64,000 bases of DNA, taken from the NCBI RefSeq assembly GCF_964213995.1, contig NC_135805.1, forward strand, positions 74,214,001 through 74,278,000, written 5' to 3'. The stretch is from Mustelus asterias (lineage: Eukaryota). The translations under genes were made by a program, and so were the position numbers. The notes below the pieces were generated by a model. It searched no databases, was not told where the DNA came from, and was given only the letters and a program-made list of their open reading frames with translations. Numbering within the stretch: position 1 is the stretch's first letter; every line of letters starts with the position of its first letter. Positions 7,767-48,911 of the stretch are shown in pieces.

Positions 7767-7916
7767 GTAAAGAAATTGTCATTTAAGCTATTTGAGGAAA
7801 TAAGCATGTAAACATAATTGATAGAAGAATGCAAAATTTATATGTTTGACAAGTCTTAAGAATTTAGCAATGGAATAAATACGTTTGTAAATCTAAGATT
7901 TTTGTACTCTTTGCAG

Positions 7917-8012
7917 ATATTTGGAGCATTGGCATCACATCCATTTCGATTAAGTGACCATTGTTTTGGTACAGGAGAAACCTTTCTCTACACATTCAAT
8001 CCACAGTTCAAG
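7917..8012 (+). CDS. NCOA7: NCOA7 TLDc exon (IFGALASHPFRLSDHCFGTGETFLYTFNPQFK), GC donor
   Basis: ttgcag| acceptor, 96 nt, GTGETF motif; ends AAG|gcaagt. Confidence 0.95.
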
Positions 8013-8641
8013 GCAAGTTCTTACATGTTGAAGTTTTTAGAAAGTTTGTGTAGGTGGGGGAATTTGGCTGGTGAAGACATTTTAAAAATCATCCACTTAC
8101 TCTTTAAGTTTTTAACATTAGTGAATAATTTACTGATTAGATTTACATCATGCGGTGTTAAATGCCATCTATGTATCTTAAAAGTTCTGGATCAAAGTTT
8201 GTTGGTATTATTGCCCAGTTCGGATGTTTAATTTGAGGAAAGTGTGTTTCATCAAGTATGTTAGTTACACTGTACATTTTTGTAACAAAAAAAAGAATTT
8301 CTGTAGCATTCATTTGGGAAAAGAGCTAGTTTATTGGATTCTTGCAAAGCTAATACCGTATAGCATGTATTATGCAGGAACAGAACAATGTATAGCTGAG
8401 TAGCTAAGGATGGACAACAAATGCAACCTTAGAAGTGTCATCTACATCCGAGAATGAATACTGTTTACAAAATTAGTTCCCCAGTTTAACACACATCCTA
8501 CTTGAACATTATGAAATATATCCACATTTTGGAAATGTTTAAGCACTTTAATGTATAATTGATGCAAGTAAGCTTCTATGGTATAGAAACATACAGCCTG
8601 ATTTATATGTAATATAAATTGAATATATTTTAATCCAATAG

Positions 8642-8715
8642 ATATTCAGGTGGAGTGGAGAAAACTCGTACTTCATTAAAGGAGACAGAGACTCTTTAGA
8701 ACTAGGTGGAGGCAG
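8642..8715 (+). CDS. NCOA7: NCOA7 TLDc exon (IFRWSGENSYFIKGDRDSLELGGG)
   Basis: ccaatag| acceptor, AG|gtatgt donor, 74 nt, phase 2. Confidence 0.95.
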
Positions 8716-8975
8716 GTATGTATCCACCAGATATCATCTCAATTTTATCATCTCAATTACTACAGCTTATGATTTGCTTTTAATTTTTATATCCGTCTAA
8801 AACTTAATATAGAATTTATATTGAATGGTCTTGTATTTTTCTTAAAATAATACAACCACATTATTGCAATTGATGGTTTTAATGAAAAGAATGACATCAT
8901 GTGATGTGATATTATAACATCTGTACTTGCACAATATGTAAGCTTAAATGCAGTCCTAAAGAGCTCTCATTAGTT

Positions 8976-9580
8976 AGAATCATAGAATCCCTACAGTACA
9001 CAAGGGCGGCATGGTAGCACAGTGGTTAGCACTGCTGCTTCACAGCTCCAGGGACATGGGTTCGAATCCCAGCTCGGGTCACTGTCTGTGTGGAGTTTGC
9101 ACATTCTCCTCGTGTCTGCGTGGGTTTCCTCCCACAGTCCAAAGATGTGCGGGCTAGGTTGATTGGCCATTCTAAATTGCCCCTTAGTGTCCCGGGATGC
9201 ATAGGTTAGAGGGATTAGTGGGTAAATATGTAGGGATATGGGGATAAGGCCTGGGTAGGATTGTGGTTGGTGCAGACTAGATGAGCCGAATGGCCTCTCT
9301 CTGCACTGTAGGATTCTATAACTTATGGCCCATTGAGCTTGCACTGACAACAATCCCACCCAGATCCTAGACCCGTAACCCCACATATTTACCTTGCTAA
9401 TTCCCCTTACACTACGAGGCAATTTATCATGGCCAATCCACCTAACCCGCACATCTTTGGACTGTGGGAGGAAATCCACGCAGACATTGGGAGTATATAC
9501 ACACAGTTACCAAGACTGGCATTGAACCCAGGTCCCAGGTGCTGTGAGGCAGCAGTGCTAACCATTATGCCACCAGGTTG
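8976..9580. mobile_element. Nested tRNA-derived V-SINE/HE1-like copies: + copy (9004-9320) inside a - copy
   Basis: A box tagcacagtgg, B box ggttcgaatcc, V-domain cctcccacagtccaaagatgtg, gattctat tail shared with CR1. Confidence 0.88.
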
Positions 9581-10806
9581 CCCTGTTCATTATATTAATT
9601 CATTTGGGTGAGTTTGGTTAGTTGCATGTGTCTAACTTAAGTGAAGTATTTCGATTTATTGAGAAGATCATTTGTAAGGGGCATTTTAAAGGGGAGAAAA
9701 CATTGCTGATATTTTTAAGGATTTCTAAGGGTGAAAGAATCTGGAGTGAATTTGCATTTTGTAGTGGAATAGTTTTCTACTTTCTGTAGACCTTTGCCTT
9801 TTGAACTGAATTTCTCCCATGTTCAGATGTAGTGCAAATAAAGCACAAAAAGCCCTGCACATATCATTTGCCAAAATGATACATTAGGAAGAAAATATTT
9901 TTTGACTGTGCACTTGTATCCGCTGGGAACTACATTGAGAATGGCCAGACTCAGGGCACATGAACTTTGTAAAGAGGAAATACTTCTGTTGGTATCTCCT
10001 TGCATTTGTGCCCAGGCTCCAGAAATGTAAAAAAGTGCCTTCTGGTCCTTGCGGCCTTCTGTTAGGTTTATCAAAATTGTGTAAAATAAATGGCACAGGA
10101 TTTACAGTGGTAATGATGGTGAAACTGTTACTACACAAAAGTGCAGAATAACATGGAAATCCAGACATTGCTGTCAACTATTCTACTGCTCTTCCAGAGG
10201 ATTCAGAGTTGAGGTTTACACAAACTACATATCCGAAGCAACCAGTGCATTGACAAAAGCTTTCACTTTCATGTAGTTAGTCTCACTGACAATCCTAGAA
10301 AAAGTTGCACCTTACTCAATACTTAACGTGTACTAGGTTCATAATTACTGAGAAGCTCTGTCACTGGCCCTGAAAAGCTAATTTTGTTTCTGTGGAATGG
10401 CAGTTTTTTGTTCCATTATGATAAATTCCACAGTTTTAAAATTTTAATTTTAAGTTTTGTTTGTAATACCTTCTCTCTTAATCCAATCATTATTTCGCTG
10501 TCTGAAAATGTAAATTGAAAGTGAAGGGATTCGGTAGTTTTAATTGAAAATTTCCTGGTCTGTGAGGATACTTCAGTGTGATTGGCAAACATCACTGCTG
10601 CTGCACATCTGTCGATCTCCAGTTGGAAACTGATTTAAACTGCCATAGGAAAGGGAAAATACATGTGACAGAGATTAGTATATCTGTGCGAGTAACTTTC
10701 TTGGAAATCAGGAATAAGCACTATTGTCTCGCTGCTGACCACAAAACAAAATATAATGAATAAACACAATTAGTACTGAATTTATTGCCGACAAATTTTA
10801 TGATAG

Positions 10807-10971
<165 letters not shown>

Positions 10972-24984: not shown

Positions 24985-25140
24985 ATGGCGGCGACGACTG
25001 AGGTTGAGGTCCCGGCCCAGGTCCCGGCCCGAGGAGAGGGCGAGGCGGAAACTCCAGCAGCGGCCGATGCAGAGTTTGATAAGAAATGCATCTTCTGTAA
25101 AATCGGGAATAAAGAGGAGTCGGTGGATCTGCTGCACTGG
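24985..25140 (+). CDS. HINT3: HINT3 exon 1 (MAATTEVEV...FDKKCIFCKIGNKEESVDLLHW)
   Basis: Kozak gccATGg in CpG-rich island; CIFCKI motif; TGG|gtgagg donor. Confidence 0.93.
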
Positions 25141-25966
25141 GTGAGGAGGGGTTTGAAATTACAGAGTGTGATTGCTGTCACCGGCCTGGAAATGAGTTGG
25201 AGCGAGTGTTTAACCTTTCTGCGTCGTTGCTGATGAGAGAAGAAGCAGAATGTGTGAATGTTTTTTATAAACCGGCGTGTGTCCTTGACTGGATTGGTTA
25301 TTGCTTATTAATTATCAGCTGGATCTATAACAGCTGGAATGACTGGAGTTCAGGAGCAGGGAAATATTAGGGAGAGGAAAGCTGCTGTCATCATGATCAG
25401 CTCCACTAATCCAAACCAGGATAAAACATCATGCCAAAGGGTAAACTGCATTCAACTCCTGTGCATGGAGTGTGGAAGCGGATTTAACATATCTCACCGT
25501 GCGAGTCAACATTCTCAGCAACTACTCTGATAAAGCCACAGTATTGCTTACAACTGCTGGAGAGAAACCTTCAATTAACATTAGAACATTTTACAAATCA
25601 TAAGGCGACATCTCAAAAGTGTTGCTCATGGAGTGAAACATCTCAGTTCGTTACAGAGTAAATGTTGGGCATCAAGTAGAAGGAGGTAAAACACCGTCAG
25701 AGAAAGTTTATAAAAATGATTTTGAAATTGGAGTGGGGATGTAGGGATGGACCAAAAGAATAGATGCCAGTGATGGAGTAGATGGCATCCATTACACGCA
25801 CATTTGCTTTTCAAAGATGCTGCACTTTATGTGAATGCAGTGTTAAATCTCTGCTCAGTAATACACATCCTTACTTAAACCTCCTTCAGCCATGCATCCT
25901 TGCACAAGAGACTTCCTTAGTTCCTTCTTTCTCTACTCCATCATTGGTAGCAGTTCTTTAAAAAAA

Positions 25967-26192
25967 TTTTTTTTAATATACTTTTCCAATTCAATCAAAT
26001 CAAGTCCAATTCAGAGTCTCAACAAGTTGAGACATTTCCGATCCAGGCTGACAAGACACGGCATGCAATCCTCTCTACCCTGTCTTGGGCCTGATCTACA
26101 TGAGCCAAGCTGATTGGAGTCGGCAGACGTCTCCGCCCCCCCCTCCCAGGTTTGATCTCATTTGCATCTTAGCCAAAAGGCCGAGATACCGC
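25967..26192 (-). mobile_element. Putative SINE/retrocopy with U2 snRNA-derived head and A-rich tail
   Basis: 26166-26186 rc = TCTCGGCCTTTTGGCTAAGAT (U2 nt 7-27); T8 at 25967-25974; tttaaaaa on both flanks; internal hairpins. Confidence 0.7.
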
Positions 26193-26588
26193 TTTTAAAA
26201 ATGGCCTCATATGAAACATATGAAGCTTAAATGCAACCCAATGGCTAATACCAGTTCTTCTGCCACAATGCTCAGCACTTTATCTCTCCAATTTAAAAAT
26301 CCTCTTCGTAATCTTTTTCCTTGACTGTGCGTTCACGCCTACCTCCTGCTTATACTCCTACCTGGATTGCAGTACTATGAGCCTTGCATGAAGTGTACGT
26401 GTCAGTGAATGTTGTTTGGAGTTTATGTTTAGTTGTGACTCCTTCGTCCTATCAGCCTATGCTGATGGTCAGTGTGCATCTACGTGAAGAAAGATTATGT
26501 GAATGAGGCGCCTTATGTTTCAATTACAATATAAATGACCCAAGGGTAACTGAATTGAAGCAACCATACTTCAGTTTGTGCCATTACT

Positions 26589-26890
26589 TAGAATCACAGA
26601 ATCCCTACAGTGCAGAAGGAGGCCATTCGGCCCATTGAATCTGCACTGGTAACAATCCCACCAAGCCCTATCTCCTTACCCCCACATATTTACCCTGATA
26701 CTAAGGAGCAATTTAGCATAGCCAATCAACCAAACCTGCATATCTTTGGACGGTGGGAGGAAACCAGAGTACTGGAGGAATCCCACGCAGATATGGGGAG
26801 AATGTGTAAACTGCAACAGGCAGTCACCCGAGGTCGGAATTGAATCCGGGTCCCTGGTGCTGTGAGCCAACAGTGTTAACCACTGTGCCT
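26589..26890 (-). mobile_element. V-SINE/HE1-like element, CR1-type tail
   Basis: tagaatcacagaatccctacagtgcagaaggaggcc ... gtgttaaccactgtgcc. Confidence 0.85.
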
Positions 26891-26894
26891 TCCC

Positions 26895-27990
26895 ACAGCA
26901 CCTTTCCATGTAATTGCAGAAAGTGCAACACCTGCCCCTTTCCCTCCTCCCTCCTCACTGTCCAAGGCCCCAAACACTCCTCTTAAGTGAAATGGCATTT
27001 CACTTGCACTGCCTTCAATTTGTCTACTGTATCCACTGCTCCCAATGTGGTCTCCTTTACATTGGGGCAACTAAATGCAGACTGGGTGACTGCTTTGCAG
27101 AACACCTTCACTCAGTCTGCAAGCATGGCCCCAACCATCCTGTCACTTGCCATTTCAACTCACCGTCTTGCTCTCATGACCAAATATGTGTCCTTGGCCA
27201 ACTTGGTCAGCACAGTGGTTATCTCTGCTGCCTCACTGCACCAGGGACCTGGGTTCGATTCCCGCCTTGGGTCTCTGTCTTTATAGAATCTGCATGTTCT
27301 CCCTCTGGATGCTCTGGTTTCCTCCCACAGTCCAAAAGATGTGCTGGTTAGGTGCATTGGGCTTGTTAAATTCCCCTTCAGTGTACCCAAACAGACACTG
27401 GAGTGTGGCAACTAGGGGATTTTCACAGTAACTTCATTGCAGTGTTAATGTAAGTCTACTTGTGACACTAATAAATAAACTTTTAACTGCAGTGTTCCAG
27501 TGAAACCCAACATGAACTGGAGGAAAAACACCTCATCATCCGATTTGGCACATTACAACCTTCTGGGCTCAACATTGAGTTCAACAACTTTATACTGTGA
27601 ACTTTCCCCTTGACCCCCTTTTTATTTGTATTTGTCCCAACACAACCTTCAACCCCGCCGGATCATCTGTCACTTTACCTTTTGTTTTGCTTTCACTGAG
27701 CACTGATCTTTGTCCTCTTATGAACACATTCTGCTTTCTTACCTTTATGCCAGTATCAGCACCTTCTTGGTCTCTTTGCTACTATTAACACTCCCTTTGT
27801 CTCGTGTCCATGACATCTTTGTTAATCTCTCTTTAGCTCCCACCTATCCCTGACCTTCTATTCTGATCCACCTTCTCCAACCCCCTTTCCACTGTATGAT
27901 CCATCACATTGCTACCACTCTTCAGCTCTGAAGAAGAGTCATATGGACTCAAAATGTTAACTCTGCATCTGCAGTCTTTTGCTTTTATGT
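26895..27990 (+). mobile_element. Older, distinct Penelope-like fragment (GIY-YIG) with nested type-B SINE (27205-27482)
   Basis: VYCIHCSQCGLLYIGATKCRLGDCFAEHL; decayed hammerhead ctgaaga a gagtc atatg gactc aaaatgtt at 27928-27958. Confidence 0.8.
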
Positions 27991-28568
27991 CACCTGAAAT
28001 GTTAGCTTGCCAGCATTATATTTAATTATCACTTGGACATCCTGCCTATTAATATCTGTGAAGCAGTTTGCAAAATGCGCCTACTCAAAGGTTTCAGAAT
28101 GAAGGATCCTGTTTTTAATAACTGCTAATGTCTAATTTTGTGACCAGCATTGCATTGCAATGCCCACTAAGATTAATAAATTTAAAATATTGCTTGTTCT
28201 ATTCATGTATTTAGTTGTAGCAAAGCACATGTTTTAATCTCAGCATGTCCGGCAGCATATTTCAGCAGAACCCATCAACCTGAAACATTGAAACTTTCCC
28301 TGTCTTACAGATGCTGCTAGACTTGCTCATTTATACCATTTTTGGTTTTTAATTCAGATTTCCAACATCTGCAGTATTTGCTTTTATATATTTAACCTAT
28401 TGCATTAAATGAATAAACAGCTGAGAAATTAAAAAATGAAAATTGCTGTCTACAATGAAGTTCCTGTTTTGATCAGTGTTTTATGCATAATTACATTTAT
28501 GTCAAATTGCCATATAATAAAATAAGGAGTCAAGAGATGTTAAATTTAAATTGATGCTTTTTTTGTAG

Positions 28569-28686
28569 GATGAGCAGTTTGCTTGTTTTAGGGACATTCG
28601 ACCTGGTGCACCCCATCATTATCTTGTTGTGCCAAGAAAACACATTGCAAATTGTAAATCTTTGAAGAAGGAGCACATATCGACAG
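28569..28686 (+). CDS. HINT3: HINT3 exon 2 (DEQFACFRDIRPGAPHHYLVVPRKHIANCKSLKKEHIST)
   Basis: ttttgtag| acceptor, G|gtgaga donor; HIT-family FxDIxPxAPxHxLVVP motif. Confidence 0.96.
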
Positions 28687-29625
28687 GTGAGATTGCATTC
28701 ACTTCATTCTTCAGATCATATTACAATGCTCTACTGCATCTTTTCTTAATTAAACCTGCTTGCAAAAGATTTACAAATGCGTTTCATGAACAGTCTTCAA
28801 AAACAAAATTCTTTAGATCAGTTACTGAAGGGCAAAAGACCAAGCTCAAATGCTGAAGAGTCGTTAGGTCCTAATTACAAATGATTCACTTGGTGGCATG
28901 TTTGCCTCCTGGTCACATCTGAGAGTCCAGTATTTCTTTCAGAAGTTTAAAATCTTAAAGCTGTATTAAAGTTCAGGTTCCAGCACAAGCTTCTGCTAGT
29001 ATCCTTGTCTTCTAAACCGCCTCTGTTGAACTGAGAGCACCCCAGGATATGGAGTAGTCTTGTATAAATGCCAACATTGACTTCTTTCTCGTGTAATATT
29101 TGACAAAATTATACCACAGTAGAGATATTTTTTATTCACACAGAATGAAGGACAGCTATATTTTGGTTAGAATTGTGGACAACCTATAGTTGCTATTTTA
29201 TTGTCTTCGGCATCCACTTTAAATCATAGTTAGCATGCATTGTGTGTGATGTTACACTGTCTTGTGCTATGTCAAAGGGGATTTATTGAATAAATTTCTA
29301 TTTGAAATACAAAGCAATCTTGTGTATTCCTTTGAATGGAATATCAGATTTCCACTGGTGGTTGTGTAATATTCTGCCCTATTATATTGCCATTATTGGT
29401 GTTCGCTCTATATTAGCAATTGAGAGGGGATGGATGGTTGGTGCTCTGCCATTTTAATCCATATCCTCATTTTGACAACACAGTTAACTACCTTAACATG
29501 TATACCGATCTATATTACAAGAGGCTCAGTAGTGGGGAGTGAGACATGGTAAGATACCCATAGATGGCCAGAATGCGATTGAAAGGCAGTTGGCAGTTAA
29601 AATGGGAAAGGACTATGTTCTAGAG

Positions 29626-30055
29626 CAATGCTTCCCAAACTTTTTTTCCACGTGTTATTCCATTTGAATGCCCCAGACTTTGCATTTCCCCAGAGTGAAA
29701 ATTTTGGGGGTACGAGAGTCATTGAGTGGGAGTGGGATAGCTTCAGTTGCTGAACAAGGTGACAGTGTGGGGGTGAAGGGTGAGAGGGTTGCAGCTGGGG
29801 TGTAAATTTGAGCATGGCAGGAAATGTTTAAACTTTTTTAAAAAACTATCTTTTCACAGCCTTTTTTTGCAGCAGAAATCAGACATCAAAGATCTGTCCA
29901 TTAGACCATCCCACCATTAGAAAAGAAACAAGAATTTAAAGGGGTTTACAGCTATTAGCATTTAGTCCAAGCTCCTCGTCAGCTATTGCTGCCTCAGACT
30001 TTGTCACCCCAGAATTTCATCTTGTGGGGTCATGAGCCCAATTTAAGAAGCCCTG
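29626..30055. mobile_element. Possible old hAT/Charlie-like non-autonomous DNA transposon
   Basis: Termini caatgcttcccaaac / atttaagaagccctg; flanks ttctagag and (a)ttctaaag resemble the NTCTAGAN target. Confidence 0.45.
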
Positions 30056-30220
30056 ATTCTAAAGAATGCAACCTAAATTGTAGTTTTAGACTCTCTGTTC
30101 CAATTTTACATGTTGGTCCCGATGTACATAAGTATGTTTATGACTCATCTACATGAGTCCTGATGTAAGCGATGCATCAGTGGTATGCTTTAATTTGTAA
30201 AATTCTATTTTAATAAATAG

Positions 30221-30290
30221 TTGAAAAAATGGTGAACATTGGAGAAAATGTACTACAACAAAACGGTATTGATGACCTGACAGATGTAAG
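30221..30290 (+). CDS. HINT3: HINT3 exon 3 (VEKMVNIGENVLQQNGIDDLTDVR)
   Basis: aaatag| acceptor, AG|gtatgt donor; phases 1 and 2 join exons 2 and 4 in frame. Confidence 0.92.
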
Positions 30291-30981
30291 GTATGTAGAG
30301 TACTCTACAAAACTAACTGGATGCTTGGTAACTGAATAATATTCTGCCTGTGAACTTTTCCAGTAATTTTCTGGAAAGCCATGTAGATGCTCAGACCAAT
30401 TAGAAATAACAAACTTCAACCTAGCATTCCCTCGTAAACTTTTAAGTGAATTAACAACATCCTTTAAAAAGGTATTTCAATATGGATTGTAATGGAGCAA
30501 TGTATAGTGCTTGAATTTTAATTGAATACAGCATTGTATTGCTGGGGGAAGCTGGCATGTAATTATTGTGAGGGTCATTATCTGAGTACATGTTGGTAGC
30601 AGGCATTGTGCTGCAATGTTCTAATCTACTGAAAACGATCCTCACTGTTTAAGCATGGTGAAAAGAACAGCAGGTTTTTATAACAAAACAATATTAAAAT
30701 GACACTCAAAATACACTACATCTCTTCACTTTCAATTTTACTGTAAACGGTTTGGTATGTTTCATATAACTTGGATTGAACTATTTTTACAGGTTAAGTA
30801 TTGTATGTGAAAATTACAATGAAGCTACAAAATTTAAAAAAAATTAAAATATGAACAAACTTAACATTTTGCAGGTTACATTGAACCTAATTCAGTTGTT
30901 TTTATGTAGCTTTGTTGCTGTGATGTGATTTTTGGGATTATTCTGATTGTACACTGTGTTGATTATAATATTTATTTACAG

Positions 30982-31108
30982 GCTGGGCTTTCACTGGCCC
31001 CCATTCTGCACAATAAATCATTTGCACTTGCATGTACTGGCTCCAGCTAGTCAGATGGGATTCATATCGAGAATGGTTTACAGAGCCAATTCCTACTGGT
31101 TCATTACA
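30982..31108 (+). CDS. HINT3: HINT3 exon 4 with histidine triad ([21 protein letters not shown]...NSYWFIT)
   Basis: HLHLH triad; tttacag| acceptor, ACA|gtaagt donor. Confidence 0.97.
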
Positions 31109-33897: not shown

Positions 33898-33942
33898 GTT
33901 GACCAGTTGATTAAAAAGCTAACATCTCTTCCGGATAATTGA
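33898..33942 (+). CDS. HINT3: HINT3 exon 5 (VDQLIKKLTSLPDN*)
   Basis: Pyrimidine tract then cttaaag| acceptor; TGA 33940-33942; total 516 nt = 171 aa; AATAAA at 34389. Confidence 0.85.
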   Translation, partial: VDQLIKKLTSLPDN

Positions 33943-34934
33943 GTGGTGGAAGCCGAATCCTTGCAGTTGAATTCCATTGCAGACGATTCCAGAAGTGACT
34001 TGATTTCAAGACTACAGTTGATCTTAACCTGCTCCAGCTTTTAATTTAGTCAATAAGAATTAATTTGTGTCCAATGTAATTGAAAAATGCCATTTAATGG
34101 ATTCCTCTTCTATAAAATCCAAAGTTTTTGATTTAAAAAGACCTGTAACTATCCTCTTAAACTGTTTAACAAAGACTGCAAAATTTCCATGTATGCAAGT
34201 CAAAGGCAATGATTTGTTAAACTTATTAGCATGCAATTAGTGGCATACCAATCAGTAAGGTTAACTGCAATGTAAAATCGGAAAGATTGAAGAACTTTAA
34301 TGGCGTAATGTTCATATGTAAGATTTTCTCTGAAATACTAAGTTTACATGAAAAATTTAATTGCATCAACATTAATGTAAAACATTTTAATAAATGTGTA
34401 AATATGTTTTCACTTGCAGCAGTAAAATATTTATCTTGTGTCTGAAAGATTGTTAGTACATTAGCATGTAATATACTGGTATATTAGTTTGGATCAGGAT
34501 TTTCAGAGACATTTTAACTATTGTATTCCTGACTGAATTGTTCTCGCCTTACAGAACTGAATATGAGAACAGACAAATTATTTTTTGCATGTAATTCAGA
34601 AAATGTACAATGCATTCTTACAGATGGTTGAGATAAAAATGAGTCACCGCTCTGCCATCATCTTGTGTTAATGACCAAATTGTTTGTTCTAACAGCATGA
34701 AAGATTTTATTAAATTGATGTTAATAAAATGGCAAAAATGTACAGTTGTAATTTACGCTCATTAACATTCATGCCATGACTTATAAGTGCATATAATAAT
34801 TTGAGTTGCTGGTAGTTCTCTATGCCATAGCCACTGTGTTTGCTTTTATAGCATGGGATTTTCTGATCCACTGTGCCTGTAATCACTAACTTTATTAACA
34901 AGTTGAAATCTGCTTTTCAGCTCAGATCCGAGAT

Positions 34935-35220
34935 TTTGACACTGTTGTCTCACAGCACCAGGGACCCGGGTTTGATTCCCAGTTTGGGTCACCGTCTGTG
35001 TGGAGTCTGCATGTTCTCCCCGTATCTGTGTGTGTTTCCTCCAGGTGCTCTGGTTTCCTCCCACAATCCAAAAGACTTGCTGGTTAGTTGCATTGACTAT
35101 GCTAAATTCTCCCTCAGTGTACCCGAACAGGCACCAGAGTGTGGCGACTGGGGGATTTTCACAGTAACTTCACTGCGGTGTTAATGTAAGCCTACTTGTG
35201 ACACTAATAAATAAACTCAA
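34935..35220 (+). mobile_element. V-SINE-like element, tail type B
   Basis: gggtttgattccc B box; ends cttgtgacactaataaataaact. Confidence 0.85.
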
Positions 35221-35394
35221 ACTTAAAAACTTCTGAAATGCTGGACATTAACATTCTGTTCTTGCTAATGTCGCAATCGTGCAACCTACAAGTCGTGCAT
35301 ATAATTAGTACCATTACCTGAACCTTTGAATGAAATCAAGGACCAACATCCAAGTCTGCCACCCTGAAACTGTATTGGCGCACCAACATCTAGT

Positions 35395-35900
35395 ACATAA
35401 GAAGACATAAGAACTAGGAGCCTGCTCCGCCATTCAATAAGATCATGGCTGATCTTTTCGTGGACTCAGCTCCACTTACTCGCCTGCTCACCATAACCCT
35501 TAATTAATTTACTGTTCAAAAATTTTATCTATCCTTGCCTTAAAAACATTCAATGAGGTAGCCTCAGTTGCTTCACTGGGCAGGGAATTCCAGAGATTCG
35601 CAACCCTTTGTGTGAAGAAGTTCCTCCTCAACTCAGTCCTAAATCTGCTCCCCCTTATTTTGAGGCCATGCCCCCTAGTTCTAGTTTTACCTGACAGTGG
35701 AAACAACTTCCCTGCTATCTTATCTATTTCCTTCATAATCTTACATGTTTCTAGAAGATCTCCCCTCATTCTTCTGAATTACAATGAGTATAGCCCCATT
35801 CTACTCAGTCTCTCCTCATAAGCCAACCCTCTCAACTCCGGAATCAACCTATTGAATCTCCTCTGCACCCCCTCAAGTGCCAGTATTTCCTTTCCCAAGT
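35395..35900 (-). mobile_element. CR1 LINE 3' fragment
   Basis: RGDLLETCKIMK...RTRGHGLKIRGSRFRTELRRNFFTQRV; acataaga tail. Confidence 0.9.
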
Positions 35901-38900
35901 AAGTAGTATAATTTTCATTGGACATTTATTATAATAGCTGCTATCTGTTTTTTTGTTAAACTGGGAGCAATGTAACCTGTCAACTAAATCAAAGTTATAA
36001 GCTCCTGGACTATTTTGTGTATCCTTACATAATTGTTCAAAAAAAGCAGTTTGTACTTGAGTATTGTAATTCTGTCCCCTTATATTTTTCTGTCAGAATC
36101 ATCAGTACAAGACTGCCTCACTCAGGTTTCCATGTTACTGTTCCTGGGTATTGTTGTAAAATACCTAATTTGAAATCATTTCAGGCAAGCTGTAGGTGTA
36201 AGCATGTGAGATCAACTCTGCAGAGAAGAGAGATGTGACATTTTCGGACATTCTGATTTTTTTTTCCTCTAAAGAGGAAGGAATGATTTTTTGTGTTTAA
36301 TGTATTTTGAAAGTGTATTTTCAAAGATTTGGAAAGAAATACACAGCACTGATCATTAGTTATCCTGTCCTTGGTAACTTAACAGAACATCAGCACCAGT
36401 TCTGGTTAGGTCTGTTTTTGTTAGGCCAGTATGATGGGTCTGGTGAGAATATACTTTTGAAAGAATTAATAATCAGCTTGGTCGATTGGGCTATTGAGGA
36501 ATCTCTGGGAAAGTGTTGGAGACCTTGCGCTGCTTCACGTGGAGTCATAGACCCAGATCGTCTAAGCAGTGGCAATGATAATCCGATCGCTGCTGAGTTC
36601 ATAAATCCCCCTGAGCCAACACTGCCGGACATTTCTATCATGGTCTTCCAAACCCATCTTTCACCGAAATGCACAGCACAACTCCACTCGGGGGAAATCC
36701 ATTGAAACGGAGTGAATCACGGAAAAACAGAACATGTTGATTTTTTTTTCAACAGTAGCTGCTGTATGCTAAGTTTACTTATTAATTTTGAATGTTAGTG
36801 AATAGGTCAATGAATGAATGGGTAGGTGAAAGATGTCTAAGTGGGTAAGGTGGGTTAGGGATTTGGTGGGTGACTGGGTAGTCAGGTCATGGTATTAGTA
36901 AGGTAGGACAGTCAGGTTGGGGGTAGTTGGGTCTGGGGGATAGTCAAGTCAGGAGGGTGGTTGGGTTGGAGGGGTGGTTGTGTCAGGTCAGGATGTAGTC
37001 AGGGTGTAGTTACACAGGAGTTAGACCAGGTTTTAATCTGTCTGAACATTTCATAGAATCCATACAGTGTAGAGGGGGACCATTTGGCCCATTGAGTCTG
37101 CACTGACTCTCTGATAGAGTTTCTTATCCAGGTTCGCTCCTACACTCTATCTCCGTAACCCCACATTTACCATGGCTAATCCATCTAACCTATATAACTT
37201 GGGACACTAAAGGCAATTTAGCTTGGCCAGTTCAGCTAACCTGCACATCTTTGTTCCTGTGTAACTGTTCCGGTAAGTACTGCAGAACTATCTGAAATTG
37301 CAGTAGTGCTGAACGCTCAGAGTTGTAGGGCTGGATGAGGTGACAGAGATAGGGAGGAATGAGGGATTTGGAAACAAGGATAAGAATTTTAAAATTTTGG
37401 TGTTTCTGGACTGGAAGTCAATTTAGATAGTGTAAGGATTGTGGATGAACAGAACTTTGCGTGAGCCTGTGGGCAGCAGAACTTTATGGATGCTGGAAGT
37501 TGGGAGGCCACCCTGCACAGCATTGGAATATTCAGATAGTACAGGGAAAGTAGCACTTGAACAGTCAGCCAGCTTTAAAATAAGACACTGAGGAACCTGG
37601 AAACTGAAATACAGGAGATATGTTTTTGCAGTTTATAAGTTGCCAGTTACGGTCACAAGGGTGTTCAATGATATATAAAAATATAATTCTATATAATACC
37701 AAGTTATAATACTCATTTGGAGAGGCAGTGCAGACACAATGGGCTGAATGCCCTCCTGTATCATAACAAGACTGTGATTCTAGTCTGTTGTTACATCCTT
37801 GGTTTATGTTTCTATATATTTTTAGATATTGGATAGTACAAGCACCTTGTTGAAAGTGAGATGCTCAAACTGCTTGTGGGAATGATCCACACCACTGTAC
37901 TCGAAATTATCTAAGGTAGATGAGACACTGGTAAGAATACCTTCTGCCAGTGTGAATCTTGCATAGGAGTTCAAATGTAAAATTTACCATTTTGCTGACC
38001 CACAATTGGTAGAACGAGTTTGACCTCGGGTATACAAGTGCCTGTTGGTACCAAACTTAAAAATGTTGACTTTTCTCTGCTACAGTCATCAAAGTCAAAC
38101 TTGTCACTCCTCATTGGGTTATATCTGGAAAGCACTGTTAGTATGGCATCCAAAATGTGCTGTGATAATGAAGAATCAAGAACTTCACATATTTGTATTA
38201 TTTTGTATTGTGCTGTTTTACTTTTCTGATTTCAGTAGAGGTTTATAGAAAATTAACTCCTTATTGACCACATTAGCGCGATCTACAATCTGTTCAAAAA
38301 AATGATCAGCTGTTAAGTTTTGTTCACCCATCATTCCTGTGAGTGCTAATTTACGTCGGTTCCTGTTTGAATACTGCCTCAATTTTTAAATTCTCAATCT
38401 TATTTTCAAAATAGGGAGCCTCCTCTCTCTCCCCCCCCCCCATCTCTATAACTCCTACAACATGCACCCCACCATCTCCACCCCTAAATCTCTGTCCCTC
38501 ATATTATGGCCTCCTCTGCATCCTGGAATTTCATTGCTCTGTTACTGGCATCTCCACAGTAGTCTGGGCCCAAGGCTCCGTAATTCCCAAACTAGAGCAT
38601 TTGCCAAGCTTTTGTCCTAATATCTGTGGTTCCAGTGCAGGTTCTGTTTGATAATGCTCCTATGGAGCACCTTGGGATGCCTCACCACTTTAAAGGTGTT
38701 AATCAAATGCAAATTGCTTTGGTTATTTTTAATTAGGATAAGGATGTACAATAGGACATAAACAAAGTCAGGTACAGCATGTTGTTTGTTTCCAATTGTA
38801 ACTCTTCTGGCTTTTTTCTATTTCAGTTGTGTTGGCATCACTGACTAATATCGGTATTCCACCAACCACGCTAACTAAACCAGGTATGAGCTGCTGAGAT

Positions 38901-38949
38901 GGTAGTACTGATAATGTAAACTTTAACTTTGAAATGGAAATAATCTAAA

Positions 38950-39830
38950 GATGGGTTTTGAAGATTTCAAGTGATGGGGCTGTGATTATTTCCTTTGGCA
39001 GCTTGTTTCATTGTGGGGTTGTCCTTTAGAAGAAATACTGTTGATACAATATCTTGGAAACAAATGGTCTTTGTTGTTTGTGTGGATGACTCCCTTGTTT
39101 TGTCATTGGGGGGGGGGGGGGGGTTGGGTTACCATATTTTATAGAGCATGATCAGTCTGTTTTTATCCATCATTTTCTGTAATGATTCCAATTCCAAATC
39201 TTCGATCAAGGATGTGACACTGGTGTGTTCCTCATACTGATTCGTACAGCCCTCTTTGTTGACGGTTTCAATGTTATTTATAACCTTTGCCATTTAAGGA
39301 TCCCACACACAACTTGCATAGTACAGTACTGGATGAACAAATGTATTTTTTGATGCAATGTCAAAGGTTCCTTCTCAGAAATCCAAGAACCCTGTTTGCT
39401 TTGGATGTTATCTGCTGAATGTGTTATTCCTACTGAAGACTGTTCTTATGTTGAACCCCCAGGCAGACTGTGTATCTACTTGTTGGAGAATTTAATGACA
39501 GAACTTAAAGATATCTATTGGTGGTGGTGCACATGACATAGCATTTTTGGCTTGGAATGTCATCTAATGCCATTCTGCAATTCCAGAAGATTATCTTGTA
39601 GTGAATTGATACGATCTTGAGTTTTCTCTGATGCATAAACCACCCACTGCAAATATCGCAACTTTTTTTTAATTTGCGAAGATCATTTATATATGTCAAG
39701 AAGCATAACGGTCTCGACACATTCCCTTGGGATACCACAGTGAGGACATTTCTAGGAGAGGTTGATTCCCCACCACATCCTACTCTGTTTATCTTTCTCT
39801 GTTGATAATAAATTGTTGCATCCAATTTAA
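38950..39830 (-). mobile_element. Very degraded LINE RT remnant
   Basis: VSQGNVSRPLCFLTYINDL resembles GVPQGSVLGPLLFLIYINDL. Confidence 0.6.
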
Positions 39831-40258
39831 TAGCTTTATATCTGTAATCAGCTTTCTAAATAGATTGTTACAGCTTTTTTACACATGGATCTCAAAAATA
39901 TTTACAGTACAAGAATAACTGCTGGTAAGTTTTGTCAATTATGACAATAGATCATTGTACTGAAACGTTAGCTCTTTCTCTTTTCCAGAATTCTCTATTT
40001 ACCGTTTCAACACCCGCGGTGCTTTGCTTCCATGCCAACTTTTACAGTTGGCAGCTTTGCATTTACTACAACTGCATTAGAGTACCTTGTTTTTCATACT
40101 ATAAATCCCGCCCTTTGTTTTTAGGACAAATACACTCACATTTTGACCTGCTGTTGTCTTTCAGTAAAGGATTAAAATAATCGTAGCTTCGCTATACTGT
40201 GACCACAACGAACTTCACAAATTCTTCGGTCTCATTTCCTACAAACTGGCACCTATCC

Positions 40259-40723
40259 TCATACCAGCAGGGTGATGAGAGCGCGATCATCCCTTCCCTG
40301 CCAAAGCATTTCCCCATCAAAGTGGACCAGACCGTGTTTCCTCGCTCGCAGCAGGATCCCCACCACTTTATTGGAAATTGTCACGTAGGCATCAAACAAT
40401 CTCCCAAAAGTTACGCAAATGTTTCCATCCGGTCCGGCTTCTCCGCACCTCCTAATAATAGAAAGCAACTCTTCGACTTCTTTCCCGACCAGGGCATGTG
40501 CATCTTTGCCCCGCTGCTCGGTCTTAGTTCCCTTCTGGGGATGCCCGTAATCTTCTCCCTCTCTCTGCAGCCGCAAAGTCACCGCATGGGAGCCACTGAA
40601 AGGATTGCACCTCTGGTACTCCCGGTGGTCATCAGCCCATTCCTGCCACTTGCGCCTCAGTCTGGCTGTTCCGTCCAGTCCCGGCGCCTCTGTCACTTTC
40701 TGATTGCCTCCACTTTCTGCCAT
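40259..40723 (-). CDS. Actin-binding Rho-activating protein (ABRA/STARS)-like Costars-domain protein, single coding exon, 154 aa
   Basis: KWQEWADDHREYQRCNPFS, DYGHPQKGTKTEQRG and VTFGRLFDAYVTISNKVVGILLRARKHGLVHFDGEMLWQGRDD are ABRA C-terminal motifs; intact ORF with in-frame TAG 11 codons upstream. Confidence 0.93.
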   Translation of the reverse strand: MAESGGNQKVTEAPGLDGTARLRRKWQEWADDHREYQRCNPFSGSHAVTLRLQREGEDYGHPQKGTKTEQRGKDAHALVGKEVEELLSIIRRCGEAGPDGNICVTFGRLFDAYVTISNKVVGILLRARKHGLVHFDGEMLWQGRDDRALITLLV

Positions 40724-41654
40724 TTGTTTCCCCCAACGTAATGTTAGGATCCTCTAATCCTGCAAGGTTTTCTCGGACATGTCTTTCCCCAGAATAACCC
40801 GCAGGCTGGACAGTCGGATTCGCTTTTATCTTGTGCACCCGCGCATCTTCTGACTGACATTGGAGAGTTGCAGCTTGGTGTTGCCTTTCCAAACCCCGGG
40901 CTGCAGCCTTGGACTGAGGGTCACCGAACCAGGGCGGGATCATTATGATTGACAGTTTAATCAGCCAATAGAAGAAGACACTCCATCAGGGCACCAATGG
41001 CGAAGAACAGAGGATGGGAGTGCCTCCTGTCCATTGGACAATGTTGTCTCCCAGTCATTCTGATAGTGCTCACAATCCCGAATTGTAGATGGAATATTCG
41101 CTCTTTAGTCTACCCGCTTCTTTTGAGTTAAATTCGCAGCTCTGCTATGCTCAGGAAGTTGGCAAGATTCAAATAGATTTGAAGCAGCGAGTTAAAAGGA
41201 AAGATTAGCATTTACATCGCAGGGCCTTGCATGACCTCAGGACGTCCCAAAATGGCAATGAAGTACTTTTAAAGTGTGCTCACTGCTGTGTTATGGAAAT
41301 GAGGACACATGGGGAAACTATTGACCAATGTCAAGGACAAACCCCATTCTTATTTGGAGAAGAATGCCTGACTGGGAGACAAACAGCCGGATAGATTCAA
41401 GTCTGACTCTAACTTTATTGGGTTCTTTGAAGTTGGAGAGAGGGTTGACGAGGGATGTTGTCCATATGAACTTTTAAAAAGCATTTGATAACATACGATG
41501 TAACAGATACACAGTGGTTGATTTGATGATCAGCCATGATCATAATGAGTGGCAGAGCAGGCTCGAAGGGCCGAACAGCCTACTCCATTTCTAGTTTCTA
41601 TATACTATGAAAGGATGAAACCTGGGCAGCATATTGAACCCTTGGCAGGGAGAC

Positions 41655-41953
41655 ATAGAAATCATAGAATCCTGCAGTGCAGAAAGAGGCCATTCGGCCC
41701 ATCGAGTTTGCACCAACCACAATCCCACCCAGGCCCTATCCCCATATTTATCCGCTAATCCCTATGCATCCCGGGACACTAAGGGGCAATTTAGAATGGC
41801 CAATCAACCTAGCCCGCACATCTTTGGACTGTGGGAGGAAACCGGAGCACCCGGAGGAAACTCCACACAGACAGTGATCCGAGCCGGGAATTGAACCCAG
41901 GTCCCTGGAGCTGTGAAGCAGCAATGCTAACCACTGTGCTACCGTGCCGCCCC
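41655..41953 (-). mobile_element. V-SINE/HE1-like element
   Basis: Full head accgtgccgccc and catagaaatcatagaatc tail. Confidence 0.9.
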
Positions 41954-42409
41954 ATATGTTTATGGCAACTGCAAGAAATTCGCAAGAATTAGTTTACTGT
42001 TGAGAAGGAGAGTTGAAAACCACTATACATACCTTTTATAGATACCTCTTTTTCAGGGCAACAATTTCTGATGGAGAGAATTGGTAGATGATCTGATTTC
42101 TACCCTTTTCTCTGCTTATTTTCAGCTGGTTAATGCCGTATGCTCCATCTGCTTCCTTGGAAACATGAAGCAATTTTAACGGAATTGTCCCCCTGAAACA
42201 GCAAGATTTTTTTCAGTTTCTGTATTTCTATACTATAGTTACTGTTCACTACACTGAATTTCATTTGTAATCGTATGTTTTGTTTTAACTTAATTTCTAC
42301 TCTGTGAATGTGGAAAGATCTGTGAGTTTTTTGTATAAAAAAATCAAAAATGGTTATATTGAGATGCTGAAGCAAACAATTTTAAATACGAATATAAAAA
42401 ATAAAAGCA

Positions 42410-43340
42410 TATAAGACTATAAAAAATTGGTCGACATTCCTTACATCACTTCCTTGCCCTTTCCTCGTAACCCTTAATTCCCTCACTGATCAAAAATCAA
42501 TCTATCTCAGCGTTAAATATACACAAGGACTCTGTCCCCACAGCTTTCCATTGCAAGGAGTTCCAAAGATTCTCAAACCTCTGAGAGAAGAAATTCCTCC
42601 TCATCTCAATCTTAAATTTGCACCCTTTATTCTGAGACTATGCCCTCTGGTCCTAGGCTCCCCCGTGAGGAGAAACATCCTCTCAGCATTTACCCTGTCA
42701 AGCCCTTTAAGAATCCTTTGTGTTTAAATGAGATCACCTCTCATTCTTCTAAATTTCAATGAGTCCCAACATTTCCTTATTAAACAATCCCTAAATATCG
42801 GGGATCCATACGAGTGAACCTCTTAATTGCGTCCGATGAAATAATATATTTCCTTAAATAAGGGAACCAAAACTGCTCACAATACTCCAGATGCAGTCTC
42901 ACCAGAACTTTGTACAGCAACACTTTCTTATCCAGATATTCCAACCCCTTTGAAATAAAGGCCTATATTCCATTAGCCTTCCTAATGCACCTGAGTGCTA
43001 GCTTTCTGTGCACATGTACACCCAAGTCCCTTTGTGTGGCAGCTTTCTCCAGTTCTTCTCCATTTAAATCGTATTTTGTTCTCCCTTCCAAAGTGAACAG
43101 TTTCACATTTTCCCATTTGCCAACTTTTTGCACACTTACTTAAGTGATCAATATCCCTTTGTAAACTGTTTATATCCTTCTGGAAACTTGCCTTCCCACC
43201 TATTTTTGTGTTGTCTGCAAATTTGGCTACAGTACGTTCGCTTCCTTCTTCCAAGTTATTAATATACATTGTGAACAGTTGAGTTTCCAGCACAGATCCA
43301 CAGGTCGCCAACTTGAGAAAGAAACCCCACTCGCTGTTTC
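42410..43340 (-). mobile_element. Degraded CR1 LINE fragment
   Basis: QLFTMYINNLEEGSERTVAKFADNTKIGG; cataaga tail. Confidence 0.85.
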
Positions 43341-43540
43341 CTGCCTGTATACACCAGTAATACTTAATGAATAGAATAACACAATTCAATTTGGAAGAAT
43401 CCGAAAAAAAAGCAAGGATGCATTGATAAGAAGATAAAATCTGGGCTAGTTTGCTTTCAGAGGTGGAGAATGAGTCAGCGCCGGAACCAATATTCGGGGA
43501 TGAGGAGGGGGTCGGGATTGTTTTGCTGACGGACGGGAAG

Positions 43541-43618
43541 ATGGCGCTGTCCAGTGGGAATGTGTGTCGGAGATTTTTGTTGCTTTTGGCTCAAGAAAAC
43601 CTGGAGTTCCGGCTCCCG
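43541..43618 (+). CDS. TRMT11: TRMT11 exon 1 (MALSSGNVCRRFLLLLAQENLEFRLP)
   Basis: aagATGg in CpG-rich region; AQExLEFRLP motif; CCG|gtgagt donor. Confidence 0.95.
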
Positions 43619-46600
43619 GTGAGTCCGAGTCAGGCTGGGTTCAGCCCCGCTGATATCAGGAGTGGGATTGTGACTGGAGCTGTGACTGAGCTCCACATTA
43701 GACCAGGCCCCACATCAATAACAATAGAAACCTCCGGAGAGACGGCGGCGGAGAATTTAGGGTTTCCTGCTGAAATTTCAGATTTCCAGCACCCGCAGCG
43801 TTTTGCTGCTGTTCGCGCGACACCAGCTTGTTATCCTGGATAAAGGATCAGTCCGTTCAGAAATGTCTGAGGTTTTTTTTTGCAGATCATTTGCTGAGGA
43901 CAGTCGGTGCCCTAGGTGTCCTAGTCTCGGTGTCTCTTGCAGCAATCAATGACAGGGCGGGTTGTCATGTTGTGATGGGCACCGATGATCCGCAAGATCT
44001 CTGGCATCTTTCAGTCTCTTTGTGGCTCCCTTTGAAAGGGTGAAACCTCCAGCCCCTCCCTGCAGGAGTTCTTACTTTCCTGGCTGGCAGTAATTTGGCA
44101 TAATGCTGGTGGGGTGGGTAAAACTGGGGGTGGAAATGAGCCCTACTATATGACCTAGGGCAGTGAAGTGGTCTTGACCCCTTAAAAACACCGCAGCATG
44201 TTTTTAAAAAAAGTAATTAACCCCTTGCATTAGGCATCGCTCCACCCAATGACAGCCAGACTTCAAAATATCCAGCTATTTGAGTTCATGTCAGTGTGGT
44301 TGCACATCACATTTTCATCAAAAATCTAGCTGAATGCATAGGGAAAACTTTCCACTGGATGACATGAAGATATGGCAGGTTTTCAGGACCGTAGATGTAA
44401 AAGATGTACATAATACATTTGGGTTGGGGGAATCTTCAAACATTTGTGCTCCAGTCATAGTGGAACAACATTTTAGGCATACTGCTTCATGCTGCTACTG
44501 TGCAGTGGTATTTTCCAGTAACAGGATGCAGCCTTCAATCCAAAAAGCCAAGCTGCCTACCACGCAATTCCATATTACGTATTTTGAGTGATGTTTGGTG
44601 CCAGTGCAATGCCACGTAGACCATACACCCCAACAATTGGCTGAACGAAACAACCAGCAAACAAACAATGTATTACAGACTGGACTCAACCAGTTTGCAC
44701 TTGCAAAACTCAAATAAAATGTCTACTGTAGATGTGACTTTGTGATTGTTCAGCAACTCCTACCTAATCTTAAATGTACTTATAGCTGCATGAAAAACCA
44801 ATTTAAGATAAGTTTCTAATGTGGCTCATTTGCACTTATTAGAAGTGACATATATTCACATTCAGGGAACCATTCTCTGCAAAGAAAAGGAATATGTTCA
44901 AGCTTTGTACCATTTTTGAATTACCCAGTAGAACCTATAGTTCCCATTGCTTTCTCCTTGACAGTGCCTCGACTAGAATGGACGACCAATCAGAATTGCC
45001 TGGCCAACCAATCAGCAGTACTTTTCTCTTGTAGTGTAAATTGCTGTTTGAATTTTGGCATTCTTGCATTTATCCTTATGAGTGGAAGCCAAAAAGCATT
45101 GGCAACATATTTCTCTTTTTAGCAACATACAAGTGCTGTACCATAAAGTGACTACTTTATAGTTCTTGTAAATTTGCTCCTTGATCATCGTCCCATTATT
45201 TGGTAGCCTATAGAAGAGTGCACTGAATAGAATAACTCCTCTATTGCTCCTTAATTCTAGTCAAATTGCCCCCTCAACTATATCATTCCTTTCCAGAGCT
45301 CAAATAATTTGATCAGTACTCCATGTCACTCTCCTATTTTTCCCTATCTTTCTTGCCAGGAATATTAAGATTCTAATCCTGCCCTTTGTACTACCTTGTG
45401 AAATGTCCTGCCCCATGTGCCTGAATATCTGTGGGTTGAGAATCAACCTGTTCAGTCACATGAAGACCCACGGCAGAGACTCACAGCCTTGAGGACATGT
45501 CATCCTCGAATCAAAGGACAGTCTACAATGGCAAATTGTGCCTGCAGCTCACTGACCTTATTTAATACACTCCATGTGTTTACACACATGCACATCAAAC
45601 CCTTTCCCCCAGTCTGATCCTTTCTTCCTATTTCTAGATTATCACTTTACTCTGTGCTACTTGCCTCTCCAAACCTTCTCCAAGGTTTTCATCTTAAGCT
45701 CATCACCTTGCCAAATTAATTTAAATCCTCCCTTCCCTCGCCCAATATTAATTAATTCATACGAGTGATGATTTGTCAGATTCTCTAGCATTTTGATAAC
45801 ATTTTAAAAAATTTTCCTCACTAGCCCATAAATAATGAGTTATTTTTGTAACGCTGTAAACTTTGCTGATGGTGCCATCCTATGCAGGAATAAATGTTTT
45901 GATAGTTTAGAGCACTGTTGTTTCTCCTTTTTATATCTACAGCCCCAGAAAATGGGTTGCTCGTTTCACAATGTAACTCACAAACTCAGGATCACTACTA
46001 GAAGGATAAAGACAACAGGCTTGTGGAAACATCATCAGAAGGTTCTCCTCCAAGTTACTCTGACTTGGAATGATATCGCCATTCCCTCATTGCTGGGTCA
46101 AAATCCTGGAACAATTGCCCTAATAATATCTTCACCACTCAGACTGCAGCAGTTCAAGAAGGCAGCTCACCACCACCTACTTGAAGGCCGTTAAGATGGG
46201 CAAAACTCTGGCTGTGCCAGCAATACCCACATCCTGTGAATTAATTCACAAAAAAACTCTTGAGTGTGTGTGCACGTTACCTAGCACAAGATCTGCTCTG
46301 GTAGTGCAAAATGAATAGCATTTTTCTGGTGATACGTTCTAGTCCAATGAAAGGAAAGCTGTTAGTTTTCAAGTTGAAGGTCAACACTGGTGAATTAGCC
46401 AGTATTCAACCTGTATACCACTGAGTGATCCTTCTAAACACGAGACAACATCACTGTCTCATTCGTAGTTCAAAGTTATTGATGTAAAAATATGAAGTAA
46501 GTGTCATCATTTTAATGCCTCTTGACTGCTGGTTGCTAATTCATTAGACTATCCTTCCTTGCCCAGAGTAATTCTCAAGACTATCATCACAGGTATGAAG

Positions 46601-46836
46601 AATTTTAGAAATCTTATTTAATATATTTTTATTCCTTAATATTTTTATGTCGCTATTATTAAGCAAATCTAAAGTGTTCCAAACAAAAGATAAAAGATTG
46701 CAGCCCAGATTGGAATGTTCTATGGTGTGATCAAGGAAGTGCGCAATGCGCCATGTTTCAAAAGGGTTTTTAATTCAGCTGCTTTTCAGAATTTATATAT
46801 CTGCTGTGCCAACCAATTTTTTTATTGTTGTTGCAG

Positions 46837-46902
46837 GAGCTTAAATCCCTGTTTTCCCTTTGCGGTGGACAATTAAGATATGAAGAAAACTTTGATGAAA
46901 AG
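46837..46902 (+). CDS. TRMT11: TRMT11 exon 2 (ELKSLFSLCGGQLRYEENFDEK)
   Basis: ttgcag| acceptor, AAG|gtaggg donor, 66 nt. Confidence 0.9.
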
Positions 46903-46970
46903 GTAGGGTACAGTTTCTACCATGAAATAATAATATAGTCACACTACGCTACATCTGCAGAATTATGGAT

Positions 46971-47024
46971 TTGTTTATAATTTGAAGTAATGTTACATTG
47001 TTTATAATTTGAAGTAATGTTACA
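46971..47024 (+). repeat. Perfect 27 bp tandem duplication in TRMT11 intron 2
   Basis: ttgtttataatttgaagtaatgttaca x2. Confidence 0.9.
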
Positions 47025-48374: not shown

Positions 48375-48448
48375 TCCCCGTTCTGGATTCTACACATTCC
48401 CTCTGAGCAGATGGCAAAAGGAATCATGAAGCGGACAGTGTGTGCAAA
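48375..48448 (+). CDS. TRMT11: TRMT11 exon 3 (SPFWILHIPSEQMAKGIMKRTVCAK)
   Basis: ttttcag| acceptor, AA|gtaggt donor, 74 nt. Confidence 0.95.
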
Positions 48449-48911
48449 GTAGGTGCTTCACATAATTGTAATTGATACACACGAGTTGGATAATAATATT
48501 CGCCTCTCTAATTATTTATATATTGCACTGTCTCCTGTGCTAATGGTGCCAGCCCCTGACATGTAGGAAATTCAAGAAGGAACTGGGACAGCAATTAATT
48601 TGGGGGTGCCCCTTGAAGATGTGGTTACTCCTGATCATCCTGTACCATATTTTATTGAAAAATGTGGAGAGTACATTGAATCTACACATTTGGATGTTAT
48701 GCAGATTTTCATAGAATATAATCATAGAATCCTTGCAGTGCAGAAAGAGGCCATTCGGTCCATCGAGTCTGCACCGACAACAATCTCATCCTGGCCCTAT
48801 CCCCGTAACCCCACATATTTACCCTATTATTCCCTCTAACCTACGCATCCCAGGACACTAAGGGACAATTTAGCATAGCCAATGCACCTAACCCACACAT
48901 CTTTGGACTGT

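Follow-up and report, generated by a model that had tools for sequence, protein, structure and literature searches.

ABRA, also known as STARS or Ms1 (~375–410 aa), binds F-actin, shifts actin to filaments and activates MRTF/SRF, as described in several papers (PMC4682817, PMC4745265, PMC7922284). For the rat protein, PMC4682817 places the actin-binding regions ABD1 and ABD2 at residues 193–295 and 294–375, an AT-hook from residue 279 and a nuclear signal at 153, and gives the length of Ms1-type proteins as ~150 aa in insects and nematodes and ~400 aa in vertebrates. ABRACL, or Costars, is far smaller (~81 aa) and has the Costars fold (2L2O). The window, which is the whole 64-kb stretch of shark DNA analysed here, carries a short gene that has something in common with each of them: with ABRA, the Costars winged-helix ABD2, the W-x-x-W...NPFS motif, the YG.P linker and the proximity of a TLDc gene; with the invertebrate ~150-aa forms (insects and nematodes in PMC4682817, and a tunicate protein), length class and motif order; and with ABRACL, the Costars fold. 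The shark protein is 49–56% identical to ABRA over the shared part, but its gene lacks a first coding exon, the N-terminal repeat and the RRR-type nuclear signal, has half of ABD1 and a linker four residues shorter, and belongs to a separate clade. ABRACL is ~36% identical and without the 78-residue N-terminal part. Unlike the invertebrate forms, many of which bear C-terminal tails, the shark protein lies inside a vertebrate clade (support 97/92). On the joint reading that we consider quite probable, the gene would be a functional, compact ABRA/STARS paralog with a single coding exon, which predates the jawed-vertebrate radiation, stems most probably from the first genome duplication of vertebrates (1R) as the NCOA7-side counterpart of the OXR1–ABRA pair, likely acts as an actin/MRTF/SRF regulator and appears to have been lost in placentals.

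The short gene and its genomic surroundings

The coding exon of the short ABRA paralog, single and on the minus strand at 40259..40723, was defined by its ORF, by profile and structure searches and by a structure model. As the first-pass annotation had stated, the ORF is intact, running from the ATG at 40723 to the TGA at 40259 over 154 codons; the ORF listing has an in-frame stop 11 codons 5′ of this ATG, which itself precedes the first conserved W by 25 codons. In the Pfam profile search, Costars (PF14705) covers residues 79–153 (E=2.3e-31; 108 bits versus a cut-off of 24), and the top match of the 154-aa protein in the PDB sequence search is the C-terminal domain of ABRA (2KRH, E=1.4e-26), with ABRACL (2L2O, E=6.7e-6) far behind. 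The AlphaFold model, made with an 82-row alignment, has a mean pLDDT of 80 and consists of disordered residues 1–15, a helix at 17–39 bearing the W-x-x-W...NPFS motif, a linker of low confidence and a winged helix. With this model, Foldseek returned 2KRH (E=5e-8; 65% identity) and 2L2O (E=1.6e-6) as the sole matches at E<=0.001. The protein had rightly been called longer than a Costars-only ABRACL (154 versus about 81 aa), and it is far closer to ABRA.

The accompanying claim that both actin-binding regions are present holds in part: ABD2 is whole, but ABD1 is present only as about its C-terminal half, because the alignment of the shark protein to rodent ABRA opens at rodent residue 242 of 378, well inside the rat ABD1 of PMC4682817. 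The W-x-x-W/NPFS helix of ABD1 is conserved in the alignment. Sequence comparison finds neither the nuclear signal nor the N-terminal repeat of ABRA; the W..W..P.GW repeat occurs in 0/142 short-class rows versus 109/112 ABRA rows, and is present also in lamprey and in a third class described below. The linker from NPFS to YG has 15 residues here versus 19 in all 112 of 112 ABRA rows. Within the AT-hook-like YGHP (residues 59–62), the core is GHP, as in 26/112 ABRA rows, and is GRP in 117/142 short-class rows. The protein falls in a 90% cluster with catshark proteins named ABRA or ABRA-like, and in dozens of genomes the short gene is auto-annotated under one of these names. Six coding differences appear in one sequencing run (X20), three silent and three changing, a number too small for dN/dS.

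Ten queries with N-terminal parts of ABRA against 40724–64000 gave a best E of 0.083, far away from the gene, in keeping with the earlier statement that the long N-terminus is lacking; this search likewise offers no match for a splice to an upstream exon giving a full-length ABRA. A 103-aa out-of-frame ORF (40943–40632, minus strand), which overlaps the start of the short gene, was considered as a frameshifted ABRA N-terminus and rejected (E=6 to chimaera ABRA; no Pfam match).

Three other genes of the window are on the plus strand. A gene that profile and sequence comparison put nearest to NCOA7 has its last TLDc exons at 7911..10960, with approximate borders. A HIT-domain gene of at least four exons, identified by profile, occupies 25070..31108 with its last exon unmapped, and a tRNA methyltransferase gene extends from 43541 to 60712 and continues beyond; family matches to the latter are weak (PF01170, E=0.0084, below the cut-off; Atlas lead 0.85). 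From their exon peptides, rather than from a decisive hit, these two genes are read as HINT3 and TRMT11, respectively, the flanks named in the first-pass annotation. Queries of the PDB with exons of TRMT11 and HINT3 brought no informative match. The short gene is transcribed toward NCOA7 and HINT3, lies 30 kb from NCOA7 with HINT3 between, and is therefore not directly tail to tail with NCOA7. It is arranged head to head with TRMT11, the two ATGs being 2.8 kb apart, and much of this interval (40723–43541) is repeat sequence, with SINE- and LINE-like copies. Two separate CpG-richer patches lie near 40000–40750 and 43250–44000. An Rfam scan of 31100–44000 gave 0 matches. Retroelement copies were seen in introns or intergenic parts at 1551–2227, 19756–21267, 49084–50360 and 57086–58651, with reverse-transcriptase and GIY-YIG-like frames and CR1/L2-like LINE fragments; by its motifs, the element combining reverse-transcriptase and GIY-YIG-like frames is presumably Penelope-like.

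Relatives in vertebrates and the tree

Homologs were assigned to classes by their best BLAST match to class references. Among the best 120 of 220 matches to the shark protein, 93 belong to the short class, 18 to ABRA and 9 to a third class; in a search with the Tasmanian devil protein, 49 of the 51 new ids among the matches listed are of the short class. This class comprises at least 142 clusters with a median of 164 aa (133 beginning with Met), and its proteins, about 150–170 aa, occur in every main group of jawed vertebrates: chimaera, sharks, rays, sturgeon, gar, teleosts, coelacanth and lungfish among fishes, and caecilian, frogs, turtles, squamates, alligator, birds and two marsupials among tetrapods. 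The shark protein is 56–65% identical to its amniote members. Chimaera, coelacanth, lungfish and white shark each have a short and a long gene, and other cartilaginous fishes possess long ABRA-type genes too. No cyclostome gene of the short class was found, all 4 lamprey and hagfish proteins named being long; a sea lamprey protein (P0463, 1130 aa) has a C-terminal ABRA module, and its N-terminal part is very long and matches no Pfam family. A tunicate homolog (P0479, 156 aa) has its first W at 28, the same C-terminal end as the shark protein and 44% identity to it over 146 residues. In another protein (P0475, 502 aa), a PH domain is fused to an ABRA-type C-terminal module. Among 56 metagenome loci, none carried neighbouring exons of NCOA7, HINT3 or TRMT11.

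The third class has members in coelacanth (P0230), lungfish (P0449), white shark (P0455), ray-finned fishes and frogs; further ids are P0224, P0216, P0301, P0116 and P0118, with the loci L005 and L033. It shares with the short class the C-terminal module and the automatic names 'ABRA' or 'ABRA-like', but is mostly long, has the N-terminal repeat and groups with ABRA in the tree. Its proteins are long with the repeat in fishes, coelacanth and lungfish, and short in frogs. No amniote member was seen among the rows classed, which include 9 members among the best 120 matches to the shark protein and 5 among 120 matches of another search. The first-pass annotation missed this class, which the tree sets apart.

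The tree was computed with IQ-TREE from 61 chosen rows and 143 columns, among which no amphioxus row was identified; support values for clades are given as pairs. The vertebrate clade that contains the shark protein leaves the 156-aa tunicate protein outside. Within it, the short class forms a clade that follows species order (93/91, below the 95 bootstrap mark), ABRA is supported by 100/97 and the third class by 90/89, and a long clade (97/94) unites ABRA, the third class and the 4 lamprey and hagfish rows. Two short, divergent proteins (P0532 and P0568), placed in the short clade by a quick tree on a long branch, were left out as a probable artefact. By this tree the short class is separate from canonical ABRA. 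Since both classes occur in chimaera and in bony vertebrates with the tunicate protein outside, the duplication is placed before the jawed-vertebrate radiation and after the tunicate split. The maximum-likelihood (ML) tree favours a split that also preceded cyclostome divergence. In AU tests, however, forcing all jawed-vertebrate genes into one clade gave p=0.20 and forcing the short class and ABRA as sisters gave p=0.13, and the duplication may therefore have been local or part of 2R, exon 1 being lost afterwards. A single clade of the window protein with catshark and chimaera ABRA, as expected of a recent shark copy, was rejected (AU p=2.6e-14), which disposes of the recent retrocopy that the first-pass annotation had raised.

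In mammals, the Tasmanian devil has an intact short-class protein (P0048, 153 aa) that nests among the amniote short-class rows, and for this reason 'lost in mammals', as the gene was first described, is too wide. Two bilby models (P0320 and P0417) depart from the Costars domain midway, which suggests that either the ORF is broken or the models are wrong. In the tree, the stem of the marsupials is long (0.36 versus 0.05–0.26 in other amniote lineages), and ongoing pseudogenisation in marsupials is possible. No placental or monotreme short copy is named among the 142 clusters or among the best 120 of 214 matches to the devil protein, nor did any unnamed row among the latter group with the marsupials; placental ABRA proteins are present in the same collection. 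Loss in placentals is likely, judged by absence from these protein searches.

Origin of the gene and of its short form

Human ABRA presumably lies tail to tail with OXR1, the paralog of NCOA7, and human 6q22 (NCOA7–HINT3–TRMT11) is not known to carry an ABRA-type gene. In mouse, Abra adjoins Oxr1 according to PMC11201099; OXR1 is tied to human chromosome 8 in PMC7598701, and human HINT3, TRMT11 and NCOA7 lie at 126.3 Mb of chromosome 6 in PMC11335940, although genome builds may differ. PMC8040251 assigns HEY2 (chromosome 6, 125.7 Mb) and RSPO3 (127.1 Mb) to quad A of paralogon 11 and HEY1 and RSPO2 (chromosome 8) to quad D, with the split between A/B and C/D at 1R. A first-round ohnolog in the HEY2/RSPO3 versus HEY1/RSPO2 paralogon is plausible, and the topology (short,(third,ABRA)) would be that predicted by a split of A versus C+D if the third class belongs to quad C. 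The linkage of the short gene to NCOA7 was seen in the 64-kb window only. As to the earlier proposal of a whole-genome-duplication paralog, the gene is indeed an old paralog, paralogon 11 and the Oxr1–Abra adjacency are consistent with the proposal, and the timing of the duplication is left with the two AU alternatives.

A fuller scenario may be put forward tentatively. The short gene would be the 1R sister that kept the compact, 150-aa invertebrate form with its W-x-x-W/NPFS helix, AT-hook-like linker and winged-helix ABD2, while the other 1R copy would have gained a new first exon, with the repeat and the nuclear signal, before the cyclostome split and then given rise to ABRA and the third class, so that jawed vertebrates would have started with three ABRA genes. 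The short gene, which is kept in cartilaginous and bony fishes, amphibians, reptiles and birds and evolves fast in marsupials, would be a non-muscle actin–MRTF regulator that decayed in marsupials and vanished in placentals. The surprise would be moderate, because the loss of ohnologs toward placentals is a common pattern.

In this scenario the old short form is retained and exon 1 is a later gain of the long lineage, as the ML tree favours; the short ancestral architecture suggested in the first-pass annotation fits the 156-aa tunicate protein and the root of the ML tree, neither of which proves it. The short form might instead be derived: after an old duplication, one copy of a long ABRA-type gene with two exons would have been stripped of the first coding exon and have acquired an ATG where the last exon begins. 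The short protein could then compete with or dampen long ABRA, rather than being an activator of ancestral type. We regard such a truncation as unlikely, yet it has to be taken seriously. The shark ATG falls exactly at the last-exon start of bird ABRA (L002), the first conserved W following 25 codons later in either case. The third class (12 codons before the W in L005) and a teleost ABRA (L003) have their intron at other positions, and the coincidence may therefore be partly due to chance. The tunicate protein, moreover, starts at nearly the same distance from its first W and has the same C-terminal end. Frog members of the third class are short and their fish relatives long, and therefore such a truncation occurred at least once. 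The ML tree sets the short class outside all long genes, those of cyclostomes included (97/94), whereas the alternative roots, at the p values given above, and the fact that 4/4 named cyclostome proteins are long would suit a truncation.

It is rather improbable that the gene goes back to an ancient retrocopy or single-gene duplication, inserted between HINT3 and TRMT11 before the jawed-vertebrate radiation, with the NCOA7/OXR1 parallel being coincidental. The coding region without intron would fit a retrocopy, but a copy of a long ABRA mRNA would be expected to include exon-1 sequence. Although HINT3 intervenes between the short gene and NCOA7, the distance to NCOA7 is 30 kb, its paralog OXR1 adjoins ABRA, and the locus lies inside a known paralogon. 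The ABRA family has no row in the part of the curated ohnolog tables examined, from which NCOA7 and OXR1 are likewise absent, and the ML topology again matches the A versus C+D split, provided that the third class is in quad C.

Likely function, candidate promoter and possible transcript

The short protein is likely, as we infer from its similarity to STARS, a minimal F-actin-binding regulator of MRTF/SRF. It would bind and stabilise F-actin through the W-x-x-W/NPFS helix and ABD2; less free G-actin would then be left, MRTF would be freed and SRF signalling would be promoted. It lacks the N-terminal repeat and the nuclear localisation signal that ABRA has, and it may act outside striated muscle. 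Several features run counter to such a role or to ABRA likeness, in that the higher-affinity actin site ABD1 is only half present, the linker is 15 rather than 19 residues long and the AT-hook has GHP, although so have 26/112 ABRA rows.

There is also a slim chance that the protein is mainly a small nuclear DNA-binding factor of AT-hook and winged-helix type rather than an actin regulator. Proteins of 17 kDa, its size, enter the nucleus without an import signal. In PMC4682817, residues 270–375 of rat Ms1, the corresponding part, bind DNA with low micromolar affinity, but this affinity is weak and the AT-hook core of the shark protein is GHP; conservation of the W-x-x-W/NPFS helix of ABD1 likewise speaks for actin. 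In 293T nuclei, a goldfish protein of 157 aa and a viral protein co-localised (PMC10091560), although the goldfish protein was an overexpressed fusion in a human cell line. The gene for this goldfish 'ABRA' was transcribed in a fish cell line, with a rise late in herpesvirus infection, and the protein was discussed by the authors as muscle STARS (PMC10091560). Its primer-encoded ends match carp proteins of the short class, so it is probably the short paralog and not muscle STARS. The only experimental data found in the literature are those on this goldfish protein.

No description of the short paralog or of the third class as distinct genes was found in the literature covered, which leaves out most subscription journals. 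The picture of ABRA is altered by a third class and by a vertebrate paralog of 150 aa that is conserved, and paralogs listed as ABRA in databases may confound studies of STARS in fish, frog and chicken. The short gene also constitutes a natural deletion form for structure–function work and, if it is a minimal STARS of 1R age, a natural test of what the long N-terminus adds.

Contigs were compared for 4 of the 20 listed runs (X18, X19, X20 and X1), with library type unrecorded or guessed and no run recorded as RNA. Contig X19 spans 38716–40902, and X18, from the same sample, spans 38486–40963 and so extends past the 3′ ends of X19 and X1; X1, from another species, spans 38719–40824 with 148 differences and 106 unaligned 5′ letters. 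Run X20 covers 39450–40703 and 40713–40883. These contigs fit an unspliced mRNA of ~2.2 kb, a weak hint and no proof of transcription, because library types are unrecorded, X18 and X19 share a sample, and scattered parts of X18 match outside the short gene. No splice joint touching the gene was seen among the joints listed (a further 485 were not displayed). The probable 5′ UTR is 40724..40963 (minus strand), with a start site at ~40900–40960 by the contig ends, and contains short upstream ORFs at 40860, 40846 and 40780; these three and the 103-aa ORF could damp translation if they lie within the mRNA. The ends of X19 and X1 weakly hint at a probable unspliced 3′ UTR of ~1.5 kb (38716..40258, minus strand) and lie 9–12 nt beyond a candidate poly(A) signal, ATTAAA at 38728..38733 (minus strand), one of four ATTAAA in 38400–40259, where AATAAA does not occur. 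Weak acceptor-like sites at 40850–40854 are crossed by X18, X19 and X20 without a listed joint. A non-coding 5′ exon is possible because an acceptor-like site precedes the ATG by 21 nt in the teleost short-class locus L001, whose ORF is unbroken.

It can practically be dismissed that the ORF is an ABRA pseudogene, an ABRA retrocopy made recently in sharks, or the final exon of some longer gene: the unaligned letters of X1 near 40824 and the acceptor-like sites in shark and teleost would suit a longer gene, but no ABRA N-terminus matches upstream, the in-frame stop precedes the ATG and three runs cross 40850, while the AU test and the identity to amniote members exclude a recent copy.

Three CCAAT/ATTGG boxes at 40965..41037, noted in the first-pass annotation and present as CCAAT at 40965 and 40994 and ATTGG at 41033, form a candidate NF-Y promoter by motif scan; the 5′ contig ends stop just short of them. 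A motif scan of 39500–43600 found no CArG box, and its sole MEF2-type match falls inside the coding region, both points of difference from ABRA. A CCAAT-type promoter without CArG box suggests that the gene may lie outside the SRF feed-forward loop reported for STARS (PMC3399798). Clusters of three such boxes within 80 bp number four in the 64-kb window, this one included, and another is found at 24908–24970, just 5′ of the first HINT3 exon.
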